A DNA stretch of 63,946 bases, filler included, from Sandaracinaceae bacterium (lineage in GTDB: Bacteria; Myxococcota_A; Polyangia; Polyangiales; JADJQN01), in the NCBI GenBank assembly GCA_947483975.1. It is 7 parts of 7 records of this genome, joined end to end, with 100 filler letters (N's around TTAATTAATTAA, not from the genome) between each part and the next. Parts side by side here need not be neighbours in the genome. Positions count along the whole stretch, not along the records: positions 29,466 to 39,108 come from CANKOL010000196.1; 6 more parts are not named here. The stretch is one strand, 5' to 3'. Of this stretch, positions 9,771 to 58,680 are shown one piece after another (position 1 is the first letter of the stretch; the number at the start of each line of letters is the position of its first letter). The translations under genes were made by a program, and so were the position numbers. Under the pieces are notes generated by a model. That model was not told the origin of the DNA, ran no database searches, and saw only the letters and a list, made by a program, of their open reading frames with translations.

Positions 9771-9870
9771 NNNNNNNNNNNNNNNNNNNNNNNNNNNNNN
9801 NNNNNNNNNNNNNNTTAATTAATTAANNNNNNNNNNNNNNNNNNNNNNNNNNNNNNNNNNNNNNNNNNNN
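9771..9870. other. Artificial contig linker
   Basis: 44 N + TTAATTAATTAA (stops in all six frames) + 44 N; identical at six positions. Confidence 0.99.
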
Positions 9871-19604: not shown

Positions 19605-19704
19605 NNNNNNNNNNNNNNNNNNNNNNNNNNNNNNNNNNNNNNNNNNNNTTAATTAATTAANNNNNNNNNNNNNNNNNNNNNNNNNNNNNNNNNNNNNNNN
19701 NNNN
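19605..19704. other. Artificial contig linker
   Basis: 44 N + TTAATTAATTAA + 44 N. Confidence 0.99.
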
Positions 19705-29365: not shown

Positions 29366-29465
29366 NNNNNNNNNNNNNNNNNNNNNNNNNNNNNNNNNNN
29401 NNNNNNNNNTTAATTAATTAANNNNNNNNNNNNNNNNNNNNNNNNNNNNNNNNNNNNNNNNNNNN
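29366..29465. other. Artificial contig linker
   Basis: 44 N + TTAATTAATTAA + 44 N. Confidence 0.99.
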
Positions 29466-29835
29466 CCCATGACCTGCCCAGCATTAAGCTGCGCAGCACT
29501 CGCCCCGGCCGAGACCGGAACGATGGGACCCGTTCACATTGCCCTGCGTCCTGCGTTTGACCGCAAGAGACAGAGCTTTAGATGGAACTCCGATTCAGTT
29601 TTCAGAAGCCGAGCTGATCTTCAGAAGCTTGACGCTCCCGAGGAACATCCGGGAAGAGGAGGCTCTTCTGTCACCGCCCTCTCGGGCAGCGTCCCCTTCC
29701 GCTGCGACCTGCGTCGGTCGCCGAGTTCGGAGGAGGGCCTTCTACGGTCGGCCGCTGCTGCTGCCGCCCTTCGAAGGGACGCGGATACTAGCGCTTCGGG
29801 CCGCCGCGTCAAGAACTTTTTGGTCTTTTTCATTC
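29466..29835 (-). promoter_or_regulatory. Probable rRNA-operon promoter and 5' leader (16S would lie beyond the contig end)
   Basis: Minus strand: A-tract UP element, TTGACG (29812-29807), 16-bp spacer, TAGTAT (29790-29785), GC-rich discriminator; GCTTCTGAAAACTGAAT at 29609-29593; lower GC, no credible ORF. Confidence 0.65.
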
Positions 29836-30185
29836 GGCGGCTTCTGACTCAGCGTACCGCTGCCGAAGCTCACCTGGACCCGTCGAAGCAGCATTCTGCC
29901 TGACGTCGCTAGGGTTTTCGTACTGCTTCCCTGGCGCCCCGCAGCGCTCTTCAGCACCGCGGAGGGCGCTAACTATCATGGCCGTGGAGGCTGTCAATCG
30001 TGATCCGTCGATCCTCATTCGCAATTCGCACGGGGGGTAGGCCAACGGGAGCCCGGAAACGCAGCCAAGCGACCGGAATCAAAGGGGAATGGCCGTCTTC
30101 GAGGGGGGTCGATGGGATCTGCGGTGCCGGGGCGGCGACGCTGAGGCGCGATCTCGCGGACGCCCTCGGGGCGGTCCGGAGGGGC

Positions 30186-31226
30186 TCAATCGAGGGGAAG
30201 GATCCAGGCCTCGTCGCCGGCTACGAGGCCGAGGTGCGCGGCGGTCTCCGGCGGAATGATGGCGCTTTCCTCGTGGCGACTAGGGTGAACCTCGGTCAGG
30301 GGCGACGCGACGGCGACGAAGTAGGGAGGTCCGTCGTGCTCGCGGGCGACGAGGGCGCGGGTGCCGGGCGGGACCTCGCCAATCGCGATGGGGACCCGGC
30401 GGGCGCGGGTGACGAGCGAGACCTCGTCGGTCGGCGCCACGAAATGGGGGCCGCCGTCGAAGGGGTCGACGCGCTCGGCATAGCGGAAGCCGATGCGGCG
30501 CAGGAGCTTCTCGACGCCCTTGGTCTGCGGGCCGACCTTGCCGATGATGTCCTGGGCCTGGGGGGAGAGGAGCGACGCGTAGATGTCGCCCTCGGGCCAG
30601 AGGCCGCGGATGAACTCCTTGTTCTTCTTGGAGAGGCGGTCGGCCTCTCGGTAGGAGAGCCCCGTGAAGTGGCGGCCGACGGCCTCCCAGAGGTGCGAGG
30701 TGCCGTCCGACTCGAGGGGCGGGAGGAGCTCGGCGAGCAGCTCGTCCTGCATCTCCTGGCGATGCATCTTGATCCACAGGAAGCGCACGTAGCTGATCAG
30801 CATGCCGAGGCGCTCGGGCGCGCGGCGGGAGTCCGGGTGCATCACGAGGCCGCCGATCTCCGTCGGGCCGTTGAACGAGTAGCCGATCGACAGGACCTTG
30901 TGGATGAAGTGCTTGTCGAGGGTGACGCTGTATTTCTCCTCGCTCATCACGTCGACGTAGATGTACGGGGCGTCGCGGCGGCCTAGCTGGCCGATGATCA
31001 TCGAGGTGCCGACGGCGCGCTGCTCGAGGAGGTCGCGCAGGACGAAGACGTACTCGCGGCGGCGCGGGTCACCGAGGTTCGCCGAGAACGAGCGCTCCGA
31101 CATGTCGAGAAGCTCGGTGACGGCGGTGGAGTCGTGCGGGAGGTTGACCGAGTCGAGGAACTTCGCGAGGTGCAGGAGGTCGTCGTGGTCTCGGCGGGTG
31201 GCTGCGCGGATCTCGTAGCGAATCAT
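30186..31226 (-). CDS. astA: Arginine N-succinyltransferase
   Basis: NLP, YVFVL, VGTSMI, TEIGGL, LISYVRFL, LLAEL, GPQT, GFRY..RVDPFDGGP motifs. Confidence 0.88.
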   Translation of the reverse strand: MIRYEIRAATRRDHDDLLHLAKFLDSVNLPHDSTAVTELLDMSERSFSANLGDPRRREYVFVLRDLLEQRAVGTSMIIGQLGRRDAPYIYVDVMSEEKYSVTLDKHFIHKVLSIGYSFNGPTEIGGLVMHPDSRRAPERLGMLISYVRFLWIKMHRQEMQDELLAELLPPLESDGTSHLWEAVGRHFTGLSYREADRLSKKNKEFIRGLWPEGDIYASLLSPQAQDIIGKVGPQTKGVEKLLRRIGFRYAERVDPFDGGPHFVAPTDEVSLVTRARRVPIAIGEVPPGTRALVAREHDGPPYFVAVASPLTEVHPSRHEESAIIPPETAAHLGLVAGDEAWILPLD

Positions 31227-31253
31227 GGTTCCCCGTGCTTGAAGCGCTCGGCT

Positions 31254-31730
31254 TCAGAAGAGCTTCTTGGTGTCGATGAGGATGGTGATCGGCCCATCGA
31301 CCTCGGCGCTCACGCGCATCATGGCGCGGAACCGGCCGGTGGCGACCGGCAGTCCGCGGGCGCGGAGCGCTGTGCAAACGGCCTCGTAGAGCGGCTCGGC
31401 GAGGGCGGGGGGCGCGGCTGTGGTGAAGGACGGGCGGCGCCCGCCGCGGACGTCGCCGAAGAGGGTGAACTGCGAGACGACGAGCACGGCGCCGGCAACG
31501 TCGGTCACGCTGCGGGAGAGCTTGCCGGCGTCGTCCTCGAAGATGCGCAGGGTCGCGAGCTTGTCGGCCATCGCGGCAACGTCGGTCGGGGTGTCGTCGG
31601 CGCCGACGCCTAGGTAGACGAGCAGGCCGTGGGCGATGGCGCCTGTCGTGACCGCGTCGGCGGGGTCGGCGCTGGTGGGGTCCGGGACGACGACGGCTGC
31701 GCGGGTGACGCGCTGGGCGACGGCTCGCAT
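31254..31730 (-). CDS. dtd: D-aminoacyl-tRNA deacylase
   Basis: ATG at 31730 (MRAVAQRV); LRIFED, VSQFTL, GRRPSF, DGPITI motifs. Confidence 0.95.
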   Translation of the reverse strand: MRAVAQRVTRAAVVVPDPTSADPADAVTTGAIAHGLLVYLGVGADDTPTDVAAMADKLATLRIFEDDAGKLSRSVTDVAGAVLVVSQFTLFGDVRGGRRPSFTTAAPPALAEPLYEAVCTALRARGLPVATGRFRAMMRVSAEVDGPITILIDTKKLF

Positions 31731-31780
31731 ATGGGAGAGCGGGCTAACACGGGTGACGGGCGGGGAGCAATCGGGGCGCG

Positions 31781-32050
31781 CATTGCGGCCAATGCGCCGG
31801 GCACCCGCGCGGGAGGCGCGGACAATGCTGGCAATGCGCGCGGGAGCACGCCGGGCCGCGCGACCGATGCTGGCATTCCGCGAGGCACGGGCGCCGCGCC
31901 GCGCCGTCGATGCTGGCAATGCGTGACCGCCCTACCCGCAGGCCCGGGGGGATTGCCGGCATTGGCCGCGCGGCGCGCCGAGGCGCCGTCTGGGATTCAC
32001 AGCATTCAGGGGAGCGGCGGCGGCTCTTGGGCGCGCAATCGGGGCATTCC
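31781..32050. repeat. Phased array of seven degenerate 15-bp motifs with 42-43-bp period
   Basis: Motif starts at 31781, 31823, 31865, 31908, 31951, 31994, 32036; majority consensus SRWTGCNGGCAWTSC; unrelated 27-28-bp GC-rich spacers. Confidence 0.85.
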
Positions 32051-32181
32051 GGCGGGCACAGCGAGGGGCGCGAGCCGAGGAGCGGCGATTTTTTGCGGGG
32101 ACGCAACTCGCGGCGAGCTGGGCCGAAACCTGACGCGTACCTCGGGATGGTCCCGGGGCACACCACTCGAGGAGACGCACC

Positions 32182-33075
32182 ATGACCGACCCGAAGCCCA
32201 CGCACGTTCAGCCCCGCCCCACCCTGCAGCCCGCGCCGACCTTCACTCGTTGGGCCGACGCCTACGACGCCTACAAGGACCTGATCGCCGCGGTCAGCGA
32301 CGACACGCTGCTGCACATCAACGTCGACATCGCGTCGGTCGTGACGATGATCTGCGGTGCGTGGCCGCAGATCGAGGTGCTGCGCCCGCAGCTCGCCACG
32401 CTGCCGGCGTTCGACCCGGTGATGTTCGAGCGCGTCGAGGGGCTGGCGCTCGCGCTGGCGCACACCCAAGCGATGTACCTGAGCGCGAGCACGCCCGTGG
32501 GGACGCTGCCGGCGCTGGCGGCGGACGGGAGCAGGCTGCGCGAATGGCTGCTCGATGAGGTGAGGCTGCTCGCGAAGCGCGGGCTGGTGGACGCGGGGTT
32601 CACTGCGTCGTTCCGCGGCGGGAGCGGCTACAAGGTGATCGCGTTCGAGCTCGCGGCGCTCGTGAACTGTGTTCGGATGCTGTCGCCGACGGTCCGGGCG
32701 CGCTTGCACGTGACGGCCGAGGAGCTGACGGCGGCGGACGACCTCGAGCGCGCGATCACGCTGGAGCTTGGGCGGCGGGAGCAGGCCCCCGTCGTGGCGG
32801 CGGCCGTGTCTCGCACGCGCTCGCAGGCGTTCACGCTCGTCGCCGGGGCGTACGACGAGGTGCGGCGGGGCGTCTTGTACGTCCGCTGGCACGAAGGGGA
32901 CGGGGAGGCGCTCGCGCCGTCGCTCTATGCCGGTCGCGGCGGCCGACGGGGCGCGGAGAGCGAGGACGTCGCGGGTGGCTCGGCGGTAGCGCCCCCGGGG
33001 GCGGCGGCGACGACGCCCAAGCCGCGCATCGAGCCCGGGATGCCGGGGTCGAGCCCGTTCATCGACGAGCCCTGA
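32182..33075 (+). CDS. Hypothetical mostly helical protein (297 aa)
   Basis: GAGGAG RBS before the ATG, host-like codon bias, own terminator; no domain recognised. Confidence 0.85.
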   Translation: MTDPKPTHVQPRPTLQPAPTFTRWADAYDAYKDLIAAVSDDTLLHINVDIASVVTMICGAWPQIEVLRPQLATLPAFDPVMFERVEGLALALAHTQAMYLSASTPVGTLPALAADGSRLREWLLDEVRLLAKRGLVDAGFTASFRGGSGYKVIAFELAALVNCVRMLSPTVRARLHVTAEELTAADDLERAITLELGRREQAPVVAAAVSRTRSQAFTLVAGAYDEVRRGVLYVRWHEGDGEALAPSLYAGRGGRRGAESEDVAGGSAVAPPGAAATTPKPRIEPGMPGSSPFIDEP

Positions 33076-33160
33076 CGGGGCCGAAGCTGAGGGAGGCTCG
33101 AGGACGGCGGCGAGCGTGCAGGGACACGCGCTCGCAGGTGCGTGCGGAGGCCGACCGAGG

Positions 33161-33196
33161 GGGCGCGCCGGAATGGTCCGGCGCGCCCTTTTTTTT
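33161..33196 (+). terminator. Rho-independent terminator
   Basis: 12-bp stem GGGCGCGCCGGA-ATGG-TCCGGCGCGCCC followed by T8. Confidence 0.9.
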
Positions 33197-33363
33197 CGCC
33201 GCACCGAGGCCGGCTCGCGGCTCACGCGGGGGCGGCGGACGCGCGGGAGCCGACGATCCGGGATCTTCAGGATGTAAGCATCCATCTCGGCGCGAGTCCG
33301 GGGTTTCCACGGATTCGTCGTCGTGGTTCCCTCGGGCGCGGGTCCGGCTTACCATTCGGCGCG

Positions 33364-35064
33364 ATGACGAGTCACGAGGACCGCGCGGAGCTTGGTGCCT
33401 CCGGTCGAGCCGCCCCCGACGTGGGCAGCTCGAGCGGGACCTCGCTGACGTCGGGCGCCTCGGACACCGGGCTGCCGCAGGTCGCCGACACGATGCGGGC
33501 GGACAGCGACTCCAACCCCGAGGGGCGTTCGCGTCTGTCGAGCCCGGAGCTGCTCGAGGGCGATGTCCTCGACAACGCCTACCGCGTCATACGGCGTATC
33601 GGCGGGGGCGCGATGGGCACCGTCTACCTCGTCGAGCACACGCACCTCGGGCGGCGCTTCGCCGCGAAGGTCGTCGCCTCCGCGCACTGCACCGACGCCC
33701 AAGTGGTCGCTCGGTTGCGGAACGAGGCGCGCGTCGCGAGCTCGATTCAGCACGAGAACCTCGTCGACGTGACGCACCTCGGGCAGACCGCGGAGGGCGC
33801 GCTCTTCATCGTGATGGAGCTGCTCGAGGGCGACGATCTGCGCCATCGCTTGACGGCGCAGGAGGCCAACCTGGCTGCCCCGTGGCTGCCCGACGCGGAG
33901 ACGCAGCGCATCGCGCGCGAGGTGCTCGCTGGCCTCTACGCGGCGCACGAGGCGGGCGTCGTCCATCGCGATCTCAAGCCGGACAACATCTTCCTCTCGA
34001 CGAACGGCGGCGTCGCGCGAGCGAAGATCGTCGACTTCGGGCTGTCGAAGCTCTCGGGCGGCACGGACGAGATGCGCCTGACCCGCACGGGCCAGATCAT
34101 GGGCACGCCGCTCTACATGGCGCCCGAGCAGACGCGCGGCTCGGCTGGGATCGACCACCGCGCGGACCTCTACGCGATGGGCGTCATCCTTTACGAGCTG
34201 GTGACGGGCCGACTGCCCTTCGAGGCGCAGACGATCTACGACCTCATCGTCAAGCACGCGACTGAGCAGCCGCCCGGGCCGCGCACGCACCGCCCGGACC
34301 TCCCTGAGGCGGTCGAGGCCGTCATCATGCGCTGCCTCGAGAAGAAGCCGGACGCCCGCTTTCAGAGCGCGCGCGAGCTGCTCGAGGCCTGGGAGGGCGC
34401 GTGGAGCGGGACGTTCCCGACCGAGGCGCCGGCGGCTGCAGGCACGTCGGGAACGGCTCAGGCGGTCGCGCTGCCCGGTCCTGCGGTGGGCGTCGGAGCG
34501 AGCTCCGGGCCCGCACTCGAGTCCAGCCCGGACGCGGGTCGTGGGTCGAGGCCCGAGGTGAGCTCCAGCGCGGGGCCGAGCGCTGCCCCTGTGGGGCAGC
34601 CGCGCGGGAAGCTGTGGGCCGGCGTCGCGGCGCTCGCCGTGCTCGCGGGCGTCGGTGGCGTCGTGTGGGCGACGATCGGCGGCTCGGGCTCAGAGCAGGC
34701 GCCCGCGCCGACGAGCGCCATCGCGCCTCCGGCGGCAGAGCCACCGCCCGCTCCGCACGTGCAGCCCGTGCCCGACGCGCCTGCGAGGCCGCCTCAGACC
34801 GTCGCCGCGTCGGCGGATGTTCGCCGCATCGTGGCGAGCAGCCCGCCCGGTGCCACCGTCGAGCGAGGAGGGACGACCCTCGGGACCGCTCCCGTCGAGG
34901 TCGTGCTCGTCGGCGGCGCGTCGGTCGAGGTCACCCTCCGCGCCGCCGGACGCCGCCCGGTCACTCGGGTCATCACGGCTTCCGACCCACCGACGGTGAC
35001 GGTCGCGCTCGAGCACGCTGCCAGGCGGAGCGACCCGGCGCTGCCGACGCTCGCGCCGCGCTGA
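33364..35064 (+). CDS. Hanks-type Ser/Thr protein kinase with TM helix and C-terminal PEGA-like domain
   Basis: GGGAMG, AAK, HRDLKPDN, DFG, GTPLYMAPE; TM LWAGVAALAVLAGVGGVVW; SSPPGATV...LGTAP. Start set at ATG 33364. Confidence 0.92.
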   Translation: MTSHEDRAELGASGRAAPDVGSSSGTSLTSGASDTGLPQVADTMRADSDSNPEGRSRLSSPELLEGDVLDNAYRVIRRIGGGAMGTVYLVEHTHLGRRFAAKVVASAHCTDAQVVARLRNEARVASSIQHENLVDVTHLGQTAEGALFIVMELLEGDDLRHRLTAQEANLAAPWLPDAETQRIAREVLAGLYAAHEAGVVHRDLKPDNIFLSTNGGVARAKIVDFGLSKLSGGTDEMRLTRTGQIMGTPLYMAPEQTRGSAGIDHRADLYAMGVILYELVTGRLPFEAQTIYDLIVKHATEQPPGPRTHRPDLPEAVEAVIMRCLEKKPDARFQSARELLEAWEGAWSGTFPTEAPAAAGTSGTAQAVALPGPAVGVGASSGPALESSPDAGRGSRPEVSSSAGPSAAPVGQPRGKLWAGVAALAVLAGVGGVVWATIGGSGSEQAPAPTSAIAPPAAEPPPAPHVQPVPDAPARPPQTVAASADVRRIVASSPPGATVERGGTTLGTAPVEVVLVGGASVEVTLRAAGRRPVTRVITASDPPTVTVALEHAARRSDPALPTLAPR

Positions 35065-35076
35065 GTCGGCGGCCGC

Positions 35077-36084
35077 TCACCGAGCCCGGATCAGCGTCAC
35101 CGCGACGAAGGCGGTGCGACCTTCGACGACGCTGACCGCCGCGGTCCACTCGAGGTAGCCCTCGGCGGAGACGGCGACCTGATGGGTCCCGACGGGGATG
35201 CCCTCGAGCCGCGCGGGCGCTTCAGCCACGGCGCGCCCATCGACCCGCACCCGCGCCCGCACCTCGCCGGTCGTGACGAGGAGTCGCCCCGTCCGCGCGG
35301 GCAGCGGCTCGAGCACGAGGGCCCGGTGATCGTCGGCGTCCCGCACGAGGCGCACCTCGACCGACGCGTCGCGGTACCCCGGGGCGCTCGCGCTCACCGA
35401 GTACGTCCCGACGGGTAGCGTCACGGCTTGCCCGGGCGGCGTCGGCGTCTCGGCGTCACCGCGATGAGCCAGCACCGTCGCGGTCGCGGGCGTGACGTCC
35501 ACCGTCAGCCGTCCCCGATGCGGGGGCAGCGTGGCGTGGACCTCGCTGGGTACGCCGACGACGGCGGTCACGGCGACGGTCGTGCTGGTGTGGTCGGCGA
35601 GGACGAACTCCAGCTGATGCGTCCCGGGCGACAGACCGAGCGTGCGCGGCGCACGCCCAAACGAGCCGAGGTCTCGGCGGTCGACGTAGAGCTCCGCGCC
35701 GGGCGGGTCCGACTCGACTCGCACGAGCGCGAGGCGGGCGGCGAGGGTTGTGTGTCGGGCCGTCGCGTCGGCGCGCAGGGACTGGTCGGCGTCGGGGCTG
35801 GCGAGGAATTCGTCGAAGTACGCGAAGGCCATCGCCTCGCGGTGGGCAAGCTGCGCGCAGACGCCGATGTTGTAGAGGCTGCTGGAGCTCGGAGCGGCGC
35901 GGTACGCGCGCAGAAACGCCTCGAGCGCCTCGGCCCAATGCCCGCGCTCGAACGCCGCGCGCGCGACGCCGTCGAAGAAGCGCGACTCGGTCGCGTCGTC
36001 GGCGCGCACCGGGGCGGCGGTGAGCGTGCCGCCCGCGAGCGTCGTGCCGACGACCGTGAGGACGGTGAGGGCTCGGAGCAGCAT
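35077..36084 (-). CDS. Secreted TPR + multi-PEGA domain protein
   Basis: Signal peptide (..VRA-DD), TPR-like helices with LYNIG, ESDPPGAELYVD PEGA repeats; start at ATG 36084. Confidence 0.85.
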   Translation of the reverse strand: MLLRALTVLTVVGTTLAGGTLTAAPVRADDATESRFFDGVARAAFERGHWAEALEAFLRAYRAAPSSSSLYNIGVCAQLAHREAMAFAYFDEFLASPDADQSLRADATARHTTLAARLALVRVESDPPGAELYVDRRDLGSFGRAPRTLGLSPGTHQLEFVLADHTSTTVAVTAVVGVPSEVHATLPPHRGRLTVDVTPATATVLAHRGDAETPTPPGQAVTLPVGTYSVSASAPGYRDASVEVRLVRDADDHRALVLEPLPARTGRLLVTTGEVRARVRVDGRAVAEAPARLEGIPVGTHQVAVSAEGYLEWTAAVSVVEGRTAFVAVTLIRAR

Positions 36085-36190
36085 CGGGAGCGTGCGGCGC
36101 ACGGCGCGAGCTTCGTTGGTTTCCGCTGCGCGGAGCAAGCGGATTCCAGCGTCCTTGTGCGAGCGGGGCCACCAGGCGATGCTCGGGTCC

Positions 36191-37501
36191 ATGCGTTCCG
36201 CGGGTTCTGCTTTCGCGCTGATCTGCCTCGTCCTGGCTGGGGCTCCGGTGGCGCGCGCGGATGACGCGGAGGAGTCGCGCTTTCACGACGACCTCGGACG
36301 CCAGCACTATCAGGCCCACCGCTTCGAGCCGGCGCTGCGCGAGTTCTTCGACGCGGCTCGCCTCGCGCCGAGCCCCTCGATCACGTTCAACATCGCGGTC
36401 TGCTTCGACCTGCTCCATCGCGCGGACGACGCGTACCTCTTCTTCCGCGAGTACGTCGCGAGCGACGACGCCGACGCCGAGCGACGCCGCTTCGCGACCG
36501 CGGCGATCGCTCGCCTCGAGGTCGCCGTCGCGCGCCTCGCGGTGACGAGCGAGCCCCCGGGCGCGAACATCTACGTAGACCAGCGCGAGCACGGCGGCTA
36601 CGGCAGCACGCCGCGGGTCCTCGCGCTCCCGCCGGGCGCGCACACGATCACGCTCGAGCGACCTGGCTACCGCCCGGTGACGATGCAGGTGGAGGCGCGC
36701 GAGGGCGCGGAGGTCGCGGCGGCGGGCGCGCTGGTGCGGATCATCGGGACCCTGCACGTTGCGGCGACGAGTCAGGCGGCCGTCGAGGTGCGTGAGGCCG
36801 GGGGTCCGATCGTGGCGCAGGGGGAGAGCCCGCTCGAGGTGAGTGTCCCGCCGGGGCTCTATCAGCTCGAGGTGCGCGCGCCTGGGTTCCGTCCGTTCAC
36901 CACGATGTCCCGCGTCGAACCCGATGGGCGCACCGAGGTGCAGGCCGCGCTCGAGGCGCTCCCGCCTCCGACGGGCGATCTGACGATCACCTCGAGCGCG
37001 GCCGGAGCGCTCATCCAGCTCGACGGCGAGCGGACGGGCTTCGCGCCGACGCTGCTGCAAGGGCTTTCGCTCGGAGAGCACCGGGTTCGCGTCGAACACG
37101 CGGGGCTCGCGCCGTACGAGGGCACGGTCTCCATCGAGGAGAACTCCCGCGGGTGGCTGACGGTGGCGCTCGAGGAGCCGCCGGTCACGCAGCGCTCGCC
37201 GGTGACCTGGGCGGTCGGCGGGGTCGGGATCGCGGCGCTCGTCGCGGGGGCTGTGGTCGGCGGGCTCGCCGTCGCCAATCACTCGGCGTTCCTCGACGCG
37301 CGGGCGCAGGTCGCGGCTGGTAGCGCGGCGGCGCGGTCTCCGAGCGCGCTCCGCGACACGGGCGAGTCGCTCAACCTGACGACCGATGTGCTGCTCGGCG
37401 TGGGCGTGGTCGCGGCGGCCACCGCCGTCATCCTGTACTTCGCCACCGAGTACACGGACGTGCGCCAATCCCGCGCGGCGTTCAGCGCCGGCGAGCGCTG
37501 A
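36191..37501 (+). CDS. Secreted TPR + multi-PEGA protein with C-terminal hydrophobic hairpin
   Basis: Signal peptide (..ARA-DD), TFNIA TPR-like helix, SEPPGANIYVD, three PEGA-like repeats, two Gly-rich hydrophobic segments. Confidence 0.85.
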   Translation: MRSAGSAFALICLVLAGAPVARADDAEESRFHDDLGRQHYQAHRFEPALREFFDAARLAPSPSITFNIAVCFDLLHRADDAYLFFREYVASDDADAERRRFATAAIARLEVAVARLAVTSEPPGANIYVDQREHGGYGSTPRVLALPPGAHTITLERPGYRPVTMQVEAREGAEVAAAGALVRIIGTLHVAATSQAAVEVREAGGPIVAQGESPLEVSVPPGLYQLEVRAPGFRPFTTMSRVEPDGRTEVQAALEALPPPTGDLTITSSAAGALIQLDGERTGFAPTLLQGLSLGEHRVRVEHAGLAPYEGTVSIEENSRGWLTVALEEPPVTQRSPVTWAVGGVGIAALVAGAVVGGLAVANHSAFLDARAQVAAGSAAARSPSALRDTGESLNLTTDVLLGVGVVAAATAVILYFATEYTDVRQSRAAFSAGER

Positions 37502-37560
37502 GGCGCGCCGGTCCCGCCGCCGCGATGTAAATCCGCGCGCTTCTGTGGTACGCGGACAGG

Positions 37561-38217
37561 GTGAGCGTGGTCGTGGGCCTGACGGGCGGGATCGCATCGG
37601 GAAAGAGCACCGTGGCGCGCCTATTCGGCGGGCTCGGGGTGCCCGTCGTGGACGCGGACGAGGTGGCGCGGGAGGTCGTCGCGCCCGGCAGCGAGGGGCT
37701 GCGCGAGGTCGTCGCGGCGTTCGGCGCCGGGGTGCTGACGAGCGAGGGCGCGCTCGACCGGCAGGCGCTCGGGGCGATCGTGTTCGGCGACGCCGCGGCG
37801 CGGGCGAAGCTCGAGGGGCTCACGCACCCGCGCATCGCGCTCGAGAGCGGCAAGCGCCTCGCGGCCGCGGGCGCGGGCGGCGCGCCGTATGTGCTCTACG
37901 AGGCGGCGCTCCTCGTGGAGAACGGCGCCTATCGGATGTTCCCCGCGCTCGTCGTGGTGACGGCGCCCGAGCACGTGCAGCGGGCGCGGCTCGCGGCGCG
38001 AGACGGGCTCGACGAGGCGCAGGTGGGCGCGCGCATCGCGGCGCAGGCGCCCGTCGCCGCGAAGGTCGCAGTGGCCGACTGGGTGATCGACAACGGCGGG
38101 GACCTCGCGACGCTCGAGGCGCGGGTGCGGGAGGTCCACGAGGCGATCCTCGACAAAGTCGGGCTCAGGAGCCCTGCTGGGCGCGCAAGCGTGGACGGGA
38201 GAGGCGACGCGACATGA
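37561..38217 (+). CDS. coaE: Dephospho-CoA kinase
   Basis: GLTGGIASGKST P-loop, DAD, LDR, THP, DN motifs. Confidence 0.95.
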   Translation: MSVVVGLTGGIASGKSTVARLFGGLGVPVVDADEVAREVVAPGSEGLREVVAAFGAGVLTSEGALDRQALGAIVFGDAAARAKLEGLTHPRIALESGKRLAAAGAGGAPYVLYEAALLVENGAYRMFPALVVVTAPEHVQRARLAARDGLDEAQVGARIAAQAPVAAKVAVADWVIDNGGDLATLEARVREVHEAILDKVGLRSPAGRASVDGRGDAT

Positions 38218-39108
38218 AGCCTGGACGAACGCTGGTCACGGGCTTCCCGTCGAGCTTCTTGGCGCGGCGGGTGGTGCGGAAGCTGCTGACGACCGAGCCG
38301 GAGGGGCTGGTCACCTGCGTCGTGCAGGCGAAGTTCGGCGCGCGCGCGGAGGAGGCGCTCCGCGAGCTCGACGCGTCCGAGCGGGCGCGCATCCAGCTGA
38401 TCGAGGGGGACATCGCCTCGATGGACCTCGGGCTCTCGGGCAAGGAATTCCGGGAGCTCGCGCGCGAGGTCGAGATCATCCACCACTGCGCGGCGATCAC
38501 GTACCTCGGCGCCGACAAGCGCACGGCGGAGCACGTCAACGTCGGCGGCACGCGCGAGGTCGTGGAGCTCGCGGAGGCGGCGACGCAGCTCTCGCGGCTG
38601 GTGCTCTGGTCGACGGCGCTCGTGTCGGGCGCGCGGCGCGGCTACGTGCTCGAGGATGAGCTCACGGCGCAGTCGGGCTTCCGCAACTGCGTGGAGGAGA
38701 CGCGCTTCCGTGCAGAGCGCATCGTGCGCGAGGCGAGCGCGCGCGTACCGGCGACCGTGCTCCGCCCGGCGACGATCGTCGGCGACTCACGGACTGGCGA
38801 GATCGACCGCTTCGAGGGGCCGTACTTGCTGGTGCAGCTGCTGCTGAGCGCGCCGAGCGATCTGCGCATCCCGCTGCCTGGGCGCGGCGATGTGCCGCTC
38901 AACCTCGTGCCGGTGGACTTCGTGGTGGACGCGGGCTGCGCGATCGCCCGCGATCCGCGCTCGATCGGGCGCACTTTTCACCTCGTAGACCCGCACCCGC
39001 TGACGACGCGCGGCGTGTTCGAGCGCATCGCGCACGAGGCTGGGCGGCCGACGCCGCGCGGCTCGGTGCCGACGCGTATGGCGGCGGCGCTGCTGCGGGC
39101 GCCGGGGC
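38214..39108 (+). CDS. Extended SDR / NAD-binding oxidoreductase, 3'-truncated
   Basis: LVTGF, EGDI, HCAA, NVGGT, LRPATIVGDS, NLVPVDFV; ATG at 38214 overlaps the coaE stop. Confidence 0.85.
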
Positions 39109-39208
39109 NNNNNNNNNNNNNNNNNNNNNNNNNNNNNNNNNNNNNNNNNNNNTTAATTAATTAANNNNNNNNNNNNNNNNNNNNNNNNNNNNNNNNNNNN
39201 NNNNNNNN
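39109..39208. other. Artificial contig linker
   Basis: 44 N + TTAATTAATTAA + 44 N. Confidence 0.99.
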
Positions 39209-48846: not shown

Positions 48847-48946
48847 NNNNNNNNNNNNNNNNNNNNNNNNNNNNNNNNNNNNNNNNNNNNTTAATTAATT
48901 AANNNNNNNNNNNNNNNNNNNNNNNNNNNNNNNNNNNNNNNNNNNN
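48847..48946. other. Artificial contig linker
   Basis: 44 N + TTAATTAATTAA + 44 N. Confidence 0.99.
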
Positions 48947-58580: not shown

Positions 58581-58680
58581 NNNNNNNNNNNNNNNNNNNN
58601 NNNNNNNNNNNNNNNNNNNNNNNNTTAATTAATTAANNNNNNNNNNNNNNNNNNNNNNNNNNNNNNNNNNNNNNNNNNNN
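58581..58680. other. Artificial contig linker
   Basis: 44 N + TTAATTAATTAA + 44 N. Confidence 0.99.

Follow-up and report, generated by a model that had tools for sequence, protein, structure and literature searches.

A phased array of seven candidate protein-binding sites ahead of a gene of an apparently undescribed protein family in a Sandaracinaceae bacterium

Introduction

What could be the role of a short motif that is repeated seven times, at nearly constant distance, directly in front of a gene whose product has no match in the domain databases? The question is raised by a locus of a Sandaracinaceae bacterium (Polyangiales; assembly GCA_947483975.1), the genome of which, termed G000 below, is a metagenome-assembled genome (MAG) of 5.29 Mb in 524 contigs, 81% complete and with a G+C content of 71%. 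The window, i.e. the whole stretch of DNA analysed (63,946 nucleotides), consists of seven contigs of this MAG chained by blocks of N (9771-9870, 19605-19704, 29366-29465, 39109-39208, 48847-48946 and 58581-58680); since these blocks join separate contigs, adjacent parts of the window are not genome neighbours. The locus lies wholly within one contig of 9643 bp (29466-39108). Here a first-pass annotation, made from the sequence alone, had noticed seven 15-bp motifs ahead of an unknown protein of 297 residues, called X in this work, and had proposed a coupled array-protein system.

We suggest, giving this reading an even chance (about 50%), that the array is a selected element acting as double-stranded DNA: seven helically phased, dyad-symmetric candidate protein-binding sites directly upstream of an ECF-like promoter of X (ECF, extracytoplasmic function sigma factor), overlapping the promoter region of the divergent dtd gene. 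The suggestion builds on the array itself, on the selection on its motif and spacing, on its family-wide coupling to X genes and on its position upstream of a promoter-like motif. A phased array of binding sites coupled to the gene that it precedes would be a known kind of arrangement; the X protein family and the genome-wide class of arrays treated below appear to be undescribed. In the open-access full-text literature searched, neither 42-bp arrays of myxobacteria nor the X family were found to be described.

The seven-unit array

The units start at positions 31781, 31823, 31865, 31908, 31951, 31994 and 32036, each 15-bp string being unique in the window, and the start-to-start intervals are 42, 42, 43, 43, 43 and 42 bp (fitted period 42.6 bp). 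Positions W3, T4, C10, A11, W12 and T13 are invariant across the seven units. Motifs, intervals and invariant positions were all re-found by string search exactly as first annotated, and so were the inverted repeat of unit 1 and the string GCAATCGGGGC at both ends of the array (31767 and 32035). Unit 1 lies inside the inverted repeat CGCATTG-N4-CAATGCG, with arms of 7 bp, and the other units are quasi-palindromic. Each unit can be described as two GCAWTGC-like half-sites 9 bp apart, and because of this build the motif scores on both strands, with a shift of 1 nt.

The spacers (27-28 bp) have a G+C content of 87% vs 56% in the motifs. The mean pairwise identity of the motifs is 0.63 vs 0.25 expected from composition, that of the spacers 0.385 vs 0.394 expected; the initial description of spacers that are very GC-rich, mutually unrelated and conserved only in length is therefore accurate. 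The autocorrelation of A/T over 31767-32060 peaks at lags 42, 43 and 85, and the periodicity is significant: 2000 first-order Markov shuffles all stayed below the observed value, whether lags 41-44 or the full range of lags 10-89 were considered. Tandem Repeats Finder (TRF) detects only the best-kept part of the array (31790-31923, period 42, 3.2 copies, 71% matches). Judged from the sequence, the combination of kept motifs, a kept register of 42-43 bp and randomised spacers bears the mark of selection for both sites and spacing, not that of a young or a neutrally decaying duplication, since the spacers have lost their likeness while core and register were retained. A period of 42.6 bp corresponds to about four turns of B-DNA, in agreement with the four turns proposed at the outset for an estimate of about 42.5 bp.

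The region is also covered from end to end by contigs of two further lake-water samples (identity 97.5% and 95.3%), and in this comparison (two strains only, as assembled contigs) no unit was gained or lost. Among the differences listed, 31787 and 31794 are the two that fall in motifs, and at either position the units also vary among themselves; nine others fall in spacers, and a single-base indel behind 32053 is the only indel listed near the array. This split between motifs and spacers is only suggestive. The weight-matrix scan of the genome that had been recommended in the first-pass annotation gave no second cluster of the focal motif in G000, and single sites are not enriched either (13 in the real sequence vs 28 in a Markov shuffle, 1.65 Mb).

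The promoter-like region between array and gene

About one period after unit 7 there is a run of T residues, and T-runs recur before the -35-like element in the paralogues of X. All seven paralogue upstream regions inspected by eye contain a T-run, GCAAC (ACAAC in one), a spacer of 16 nt (17 in one) and CGA, and the motif is located roughly 60-100 nt before the ATG. A regular expression for it, applied to the region from -300 to +60 of X genes, matched 22 of 73 related loci in the sense direction and 1 of 73 in the antisense direction. With a stricter expression, 12 intergenic matches upstream of same-strand genes were found over the whole of G000, five of which belong to X paralogues. The excerpt of PMC6767563 describes Streptomyces sigma-E targets with AAC at -35 and the same spacing to a -10 element that begins with CG. 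The focal -10-like element is CGA, not CGT as in the ECF consensus; we therefore keep the label ECF-like only.

At the focal locus GCAAC occupies 32103-32107 and CGAAAC 32124-32129, and the three nearest unit centres are 63, 105 and 148 bp, i.e. 6.0, 10.0 and 14.1 turns, from the AAC of the -35-like element. Across loci the array ends 16-180 bp upstream of GCAAC. On the other side, only about 58 bp separate the centre of unit 1 from the start codon of dtd, a distance so short that array and dtd promoter must overlap.

Array-gene coupling in homologous loci

The check proposed beforehand was to collect homologues of X and look for a period of about 42-43 bp upstream of them, and its outcome was positive. 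In G000 itself, six out of ten X paralogues (on contigs C196, C123, C206, C131, C304 and C51) have a 41-43-bp array of 2.3-8.8 copies that ends 125-201 bp before the start codon. As for the remaining paralogues, the array of C103 has a period of 21 bp, and that of C102, with a period of 42 bp, lies about 1 kb away on the upstream side. No array precedes C474, which is a partial match at the end of a contig, and the contig of C398 extends too little upstream of the gene. From one G000 array to the next, the units are mostly unrelated in sequence.

The same arrangement is found in other genomes. A search of 41 genomes of relatives gave 12 loci outside G000, five with an array upstream, one with an array just downstream of the match and six with none. 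A scan of public genomes gave 80 loci from Polyangiaceae MAGs, many Sorangium strains, Labilithrix, Paraliomyxa and one Sandaracinaceae MAG; 72 of them have at least 400 bp of upstream sequence and are testable. Arrays were detected in 32 of the 72, 30 by TRF within 800 bp and two (L033 and L095) by a lag-identity scan. The periods of the TRF arrays are 41 (6 loci), 41.5 (1), 42 (9) and 43 bp (14), and their copy numbers (median 5) lie between 1.9 and 11.8. Outside these upstream regions, the loci contain only nine arrays in 393 kb, one of which (L032) precedes a second X gene. We estimate that arrays are enriched roughly 20-fold or more upstream of the X family.

Coupling is also seen when the search is reversed. 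The pattern of a Sorangium unit found four arrays in two complete Sorangium genomes, three of them upstream of family genes, including one new family gene (L112, E 3e-97); the fourth has no family gene within 1.5 kb. A metagenome scan for orthologous loci gave only two, which share with X the C-terminal tip alone and have 21/42-bp arrays upstream. Judging from gene order, array and X family are a recurring couple in Polyangiales (Sorangium, Labilithrix and many MAGs), and the recurring module consists of 2-12 units of 41-43 bp, a T-run, GCAAC-N16/17-CGA and an X-family gene, with unit sequences that are unrelated between loci.

Protein X and its family

The AlphaFold2 model of X (predicted local distance difference test score, pLDDT, 88.9) is all-alpha. 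It has a core from about residue 24 to 245 and a single 56-residue helix that runs into a disordered tail rich in Pro and Ala. In the family alignment a stretch YLRW.EGD..IAPSLYAGRGGR and the C-terminal tip GMPGSSPF are conserved. X has no match in Pfam (E up to 0.01), NCBIfam, PADLOC or PHROGs, and its relatives in the ESM Atlas are unnamed Myxococcota clusters only. A profile search gave 4563 representative relatives at E up to 1e-3, and for 1816 of them E does not exceed 1e-30. The length is about 300 aa in nearly all; there are a few tandem X-X forms, which account for the longer relatives, and no fused Pfam domain was found in eight tested. The source annotation of the relatives is 'hypothetical protein', as in the case of two Labilithrix luteola proteins.

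Of 201 genomes sampled evenly over the phylum, 11 carry the family, seven of them in the same order, and it is multi-copy in several of the sampled genomes (10, 11 and 6 matches). No close orthologue of X was found in a same-genus genome. A mobile-element origin of X was considered and rejected, as there is no relative in 72,556 plasmids (PLSDB, tblastn) or in IMG/VR. A contig of 151 nt from an RNA library (one library, assembled contigs) covers 32197-32347, inside X; the array is covered by none of its contigs, to which no weight as evidence can be given. Tandem pairs of X-family genes were also noticed (L032:3058-6551 and L056:479-2162), and public X-X fusions are about 600 aa long; the gene order in L032 is X, a P-loop ATPase gene (Y, see below), a 42-bp array and the second X.

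It is tempting to ask whether X itself binds the array. The finding of one motif per paralogue in G000 hints at X as the binder; however, this is weakened since X is acidic, has no recognisable DNA-binding fold, and one unit motif is shared among the arrays of several Sorangium paralogues. We regard X as a candidate binder, and a doubtful one.

Proposed role of the array

In the mechanism that we find likeliest, a dimeric, sequence-specific protein would occupy the units. With a unit-to-unit distance of about four turns, the bound dimers would share one face of the helix and would form, cooperatively, a nucleoprotein platform. This platform would then set the activity of the adjacent promoter, be it by activation, silencing or insulation. 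The promoter in question would be that of X and here probably that of dtd too.

Several points weigh against this interpretation. Firstly, X, a candidate binder, is acidic, with a pI of 5.5 overall and 5.4 in its core, Foldseek against the PDB gave no significant structural relative (best E 0.15), and the best Z value of a wide VIA-align search, 8.1, is within the noise for helical proteins. Secondly, 40 of the 72 testable public loci are without an array, including a conserved group of Sorangium orthologues (L060-L076), and since loci of related genomes do not count as independent events, the numbers describe the pattern and do not test it. Thirdly, the promoter is ECF-like by motif match alone, the first promoter-motif match falls inside the array itself in three of the 22 motif-positive loci, and the helical phase between array palindromes and AAC is not constant over 18 loci (Rayleigh p about 0.3, by a crude method). 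Finally, arrays of this kind are not confined to X genes. Only six of the 49 non-coding arrays of period 40-44 in G000 face the start of an X-family gene and 43 are elsewhere; they occur in every intergenic context, and because 13 are placed between convergent gene ends, places at which one expects no promoter, a purely promoter-linked role cannot explain the whole class. The gene set of G000 used here (about 4389 genes) comes from our own caller based on third-position G+C (GC3), a caveat that we count on the same side. The coupling of array and protein suggested in the first-pass annotation was borne out, whereas the array is not private to the X family.

Arrays of the same period in the rest of the genome

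The class as a whole is conspicuous. Among non-coding TRF arrays of G000 with at least 2.5 copies, periods of 41, 42 and 43 bp are represented by 8, 21 and 3 arrays, while no period in the ranges 33-40 and 44-72 has more than two, i.e. 41-43 bp is an isolated spike. With a period of 40-44 and at least two copies there are 61 arrays, 49 of them non-coding, and 27 of the 49 are of exactly 42 bp. Examples are C147:3044-3348, C218:1961-2349, C41:18132-18435 and C8:17815-18084. Some unit families comprise an X-linked array plus unlinked ones: C304 (with C38, C208 and C171), C123 (with C147, C218, C302 and C451) and C51 (with C56). In many arrays the units are 90-97% identical to each other, implying recent expansion. 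Eleven of the 49 non-coding arrays are within 300 bp of a contig end, which means that 42-bp arrays break short-read assemblies.

A few details of these arrays are worth recording. C38:10663-10784 and C208:4279-4394 share with C304:3585-3716 (L019) not only the unit but also about 110-140 bp of the flank downstream, on the promoter side (85-90% identity), and no X gene follows the arrays of C38 and C208. In C171 an array of the C304 type precedes a CDP-alcohol phosphatidyltransferase gene, the gene that follows X in C304. A dispersed element of about 150-165 nt (about 15 copies, 70-86% identity) is found 40-80 bp from several 42-bp arrays, with copies at L107:680-930 (C175:3683-3922), L108:380-600, L109:580-770, L110:250-430 and L111:920-1150. 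It folds as one long imperfect hairpin of 44 pairs, and an alignment of five copies shows compensatory changes at five of these pairs. It is not matched by any Rfam family and resembles a REPIN (a hairpin formed by a doublet of repetitive extragenic palindromic sequences) or a MITE (miniature inverted-repeat transposable element).

Alternative explanations

One alternative view is that the arrays are minisatellites without a function at this site, a selfish or slippage-born repeat family (akin to the MIRU-VNTR or REP/BIME repeats treated below) that tends to arise or persist upstream of X genes, the focal array being an old, decaying copy. A genome-wide class with a single spike of period, arrays in every intergenic context including the 13 between convergent genes, the near-identity of units in many arrays, shared flanks or the neighbourhood of the dispersed hairpin element in some, and the accumulation of arrays near contig ends would all suit this view. 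Neutral decay, however, should erode motif and spacer alike, but here motifs and the 42-43-bp spacing are kept while the spacers are random. No change of copy number appears in the two other-sample contigs, 2.5-5% apart, a fixed period of 41-43 bp across unrelated units needs a constraint or a ruler, and arrays are strongly enriched upstream of one gene family. We hold this explanation to be rather unlikely.

Another explanation starts from a second protein. In three of the ten G000 paralogues and in 20 of the 80 related loci, X is directly followed by Y, a P-loop ATPase of 460-510 aa. Y matches Pfam HerA_C and DUF87 at the Walker A region and, weakly, CedB, TraD and HerA models and solved HerA and YjgR chains; by these matches it is assigned to the HerA/FtsK superfamily. 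Its mean column identity is 68% vs 34% for X. On contig C47 two 43-bp arrays are followed by an open reading frame (ORF) of 276 aa (L103:1786-2616) and then by Y (L103:2613-4025), whose start overlaps the stop of the ORF. The core of the ORF product is unrelated to X, yet its Pro/Ala-rich tail and its tip GMPGSDPF match (hhalign E 3e-6 over 16 residues). The tip behaves as a modular peptide, since this ORF and the two metagenome loci have it without the core of X, and it is plausibly a docking site for Y, which is an inference only.

Taken together, these data could mean that X-family proteins represent sequence-specific adaptors of a new class, each on its own array, whose tip recruits Y; the arrays, about 50 of them, would then be loading or centromere-like sites, landing pads for a motor, rather than sites of transcription control, and this chromosomal adaptor-motor-site module would be multiplied up to about ten-fold per Polyangiales genome. 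The unit families with one X-linked array plus unlinked arrays are compatible with such a system, the order array-X-Y mirrors that of tubC-tubR-tubZ, and the anatomy of the array is like that of sopC of the F plasmid, as far as the excerpt of PMC3177203 describes it. Against it, the focal locus has no Y, X is acidic and without a DNA-binding fold, no ParA or ParB was found among the contig genes scanned (eight of the nine called), the family was not found in the plasmid and viral collections, ten paralogues on one chromosome do not suit replicon segregation, and the focal motif forms no second cluster in the genome. We consider this scheme improbable at present. Taken in the plasmid sense, the centromere-like role offered in the first-pass annotation finds no support in the chromosomal neighbours, the missing ParA/ParB or the searches of plasmids and viruses.

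The array could also act at the level of RNA, being transcribed and processed into units of about 42 nt, or forming a structured leader. It has the regular look of repeats and spacers and is followed by a T-run. The repeats, however, are only 15 bp long and degenerate, the predicted fold of the focal array is no better than that of shuffles (z -0.62), and no Rfam match was found in 31000-33500 beyond a sub-threshold CsrC-like one that coincides with the terminator of X (33158-33191, 17 bits vs a gathering score of 61). No cas gene was found among the eight scanned contig genes, in agreement with the first-pass annotation (the search for cas did not extend beyond this contig). The T-run lies 8 bp before the -35-like element with no strong hairpin ahead, and a terminator scan finds none there. 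CRISPR-like and other repeat RNAs were rejected on the fold and Rfam results.

The palindromes point in the same direction. Inverted repeats with a loop of 0-4 nt and arms of at least 5, 6 and 7 are present in 32, 14 and 9 of the 49 G000 units (65%, 29% and 18%) vs 24%, 7.5% and 2.2% of shuffled units, and arms of at least 6 in 16 of 29 units from arrays upstream of X homologues in other genomes (55% vs 8.6% shuffled). Many of the loops have only 0-2 nt. Array orientation relative to the gene can flip, since the L047 unit matches the L044 unit in reverse complement (39/43 matches vs 26/43 in the same orientation) and both are upstream of an X gene on the same strand. The poor fold, the lack of Rfam matches, the short loops, the flip of orientation and the position of the array upstream of the promoter-like motif favour a function as double-stranded DNA. 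This part of the original proposal stands, while the repeat-spacer RNA put forward as its alternative is, in our view, very improbable.

A decayed coding tandem repeat, or plain chance, can be dismissed: long open frames do run through the array region in either strand, which is common at a G+C content of 74%, but the alternation of 42 and 43 bp keeps no reading frame, GC3 calls no gene there, and the periodicity was out of reach of the shuffles.

Comparison with known systems

It is instructive to compare our preferred reading, a platform of phased binding sites at a promoter, with known repeat systems. The centromere sopC belongs, with SopB and SopA, to the type Ia partition system of plasmid F. 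According to the excerpt of PMC3177203, it is made up of 43-bp direct repeats, 12 in number, in each of which SopB binds an inverted repeat of 16 bp. In anatomy the focal array is closest to sopC: tandem direct repeats of about 43 bp with an inverted repeat, i.e. a site plus unconstrained filler (PMC3177203, same excerpt). The differences are substantial. Neither ParA nor ParBc/HTH (helix-turn-helix) genes were found among the eight scanned genes of the contig, whose neighbours are chromosomal, although the replicon itself is seen only through a contig of 9.6 kb. The arrays are upstream of a promoter rather than downstream of an operon, there are many arrays per genome with many motifs, and the X family was not found on plasmids. 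Membership of the ParABS type was thus rejected; the repeats are there, but ParA/ParB genes and a plasmid context were not found.

In parC-parMR (plasmid R1) and tubC-tubRZ, arrays that serve as centromere and operator lie upstream of, and overlap, the promoter of their own operon. The likeness is in the array directly upstream and, where Y is present, in the order array, small adaptor, NTPase. However, parC and tubC repeats are of 11-12 bp and abutting, their binders are ribbon-helix-helix or winged-HTH proteins, and the motors are actin- or tubulin-like. Here we have 42-bp units, an acidic all-alpha X and a HerA/FtsK-like Y that is absent from the focal locus. The clt repeats of Streptomyces plasmids, 8 bp long, are bound by the winged-helix domain of the FtsK-like TraB in a conjugative context. 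They resemble the present loci as a cis repeat cluster beside a gene for an ATPase of the FtsK/HerA superfamily; unlike there, the ATPase gene comes after that of a distinct protein, X, and is missing at the focal locus.

Arrays of transcription-factor sites, e.g. those of enhancer-binding proteins, likewise place a series of dyad-symmetric sites, usually 2-4, in helical phase ahead of a promoter. Here there are 7-12 sites at a fixed 42 bp, the promoter-like motif looks like the ECF rather than the sigma-54 type, and no regulator gene was identified. Mycobacterial interspersed repetitive unit-variable number tandem repeats (MIRU-VNTR), repetitive extragenic palindromes (REP) and bacterial interspersed mosaic elements (BIME) are intergenic families of tandem or palindromic units of some 40-100 bp, and like the present arrays they can form a genome-wide intergenic class in a high-G+C bacterium. 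Here, in contrast, units are unrelated between arrays, the period is fixed and the focal array keeps only its 15-bp core. No variation of copy number was seen in the two other-sample contigs, the arrays are strongly coupled to one protein family, and there is no transposase of the RAYT type (REP-associated tyrosine transposase; Y1, IS200/IS605-like) as with REP/BIME, X having no Pfam match and an all-alpha model.

Two further classes were tried and rejected. CRISPR arrays (clustered regularly interspaced short palindromic repeats) need near-identical repeats of about 23-50 bp, whereas here there is a 15-bp core with six invariant positions and no cas in the scanned genes. An iteron-type origin would have iterons of 17-22 bp, a rep gene and an A+T-rich region, as opposed to a period of 42.6 bp, spacers of 87% G+C and no Rep family.

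If the preferred reading is true, the arrays would represent an undescribed class of cis element in Polyangiales, with tens of arrays per genome, a four-turn period and freely varying site sequence. Their partner would be a very large protein family, with 4563 representative clusters and neither a Pfam/NCBIfam model nor a known fold relative. The quarter of loci that add a HerA/FtsK-type ATPase would point to a new DNA-protein machine, which should be testable in the culturable Sorangium and Labilithrix. Polyangiales, i.e. Sorangium and its relatives, are major producers of natural products.

Genomic context of the focal locus

The features of the locus are collected in Table 1. In accordance with the first-pass annotation, X has a strong ribosome-binding site and its own terminator and is placed between dtd and a kinase gene.

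Table 1. Features of the array locus in window coordinates
Feature	Position	Strand	Basis
dtd, D-aminoacyl-tRNA deacylase, divergent neighbour	31254..31730	-	Pfam Tyr_Deacylase, E 2e-48
GCAATCGGGGC, copy 1 of 2; additional half-site, out of phase, immediately ahead of unit 1	31767..31777	+	String search
Seven-unit array of 15-bp quasi-palindromes	31781..32050	no strand	String search, TRF, autocorrelation, weight matrix
T-run TTTTTT, UP-element-like, 8 bp before the -35-like element	32089..32094	+	Read from sequence
Promoter-like motif GCAAC-N16-CGAAAC, ECF-sigma-like -35/-10	32103..32129	+	Common to family members
Shine-Dalgarno sequence GAGGAG, 9 nt before ATG	32167..32172	+	Sequence
X, ORF of 297 aa	32182..33075	+	Gene call, homologue alignment, AlphaFold2
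Intrinsic terminator of X, G+C-rich stem followed by T8	33157..33196	+	Fold -37.3 kcal/mol, z -3.2
Ser/Thr protein kinase with PEGA domain, outside the recurring module	33364..35064	+	Pfam

The order of genes on the contig, by Pfam, is AstA and dtd (both on the minus strand), X, the Ser/Thr kinase with PEGA domain, two PEGA proteins, CoaE and an NAD-binding reductase; the first ORF, cut by the contig start, was left out of the scan. By their domain assignments the scanned genes are an ordinary chromosomal, housekeeping context. At the focal locus X is followed by the kinase gene, and apart from the ATPase Y the neighbour genes are not conserved between X loci. The three genes directly after X (33364-37501) all encode PEGA-domain proteins, namely the kinase with a C-terminal PEGA domain, a TPR (tetratricopeptide repeat) plus PEGA protein on the minus strand and a protein with three PEGA domains.

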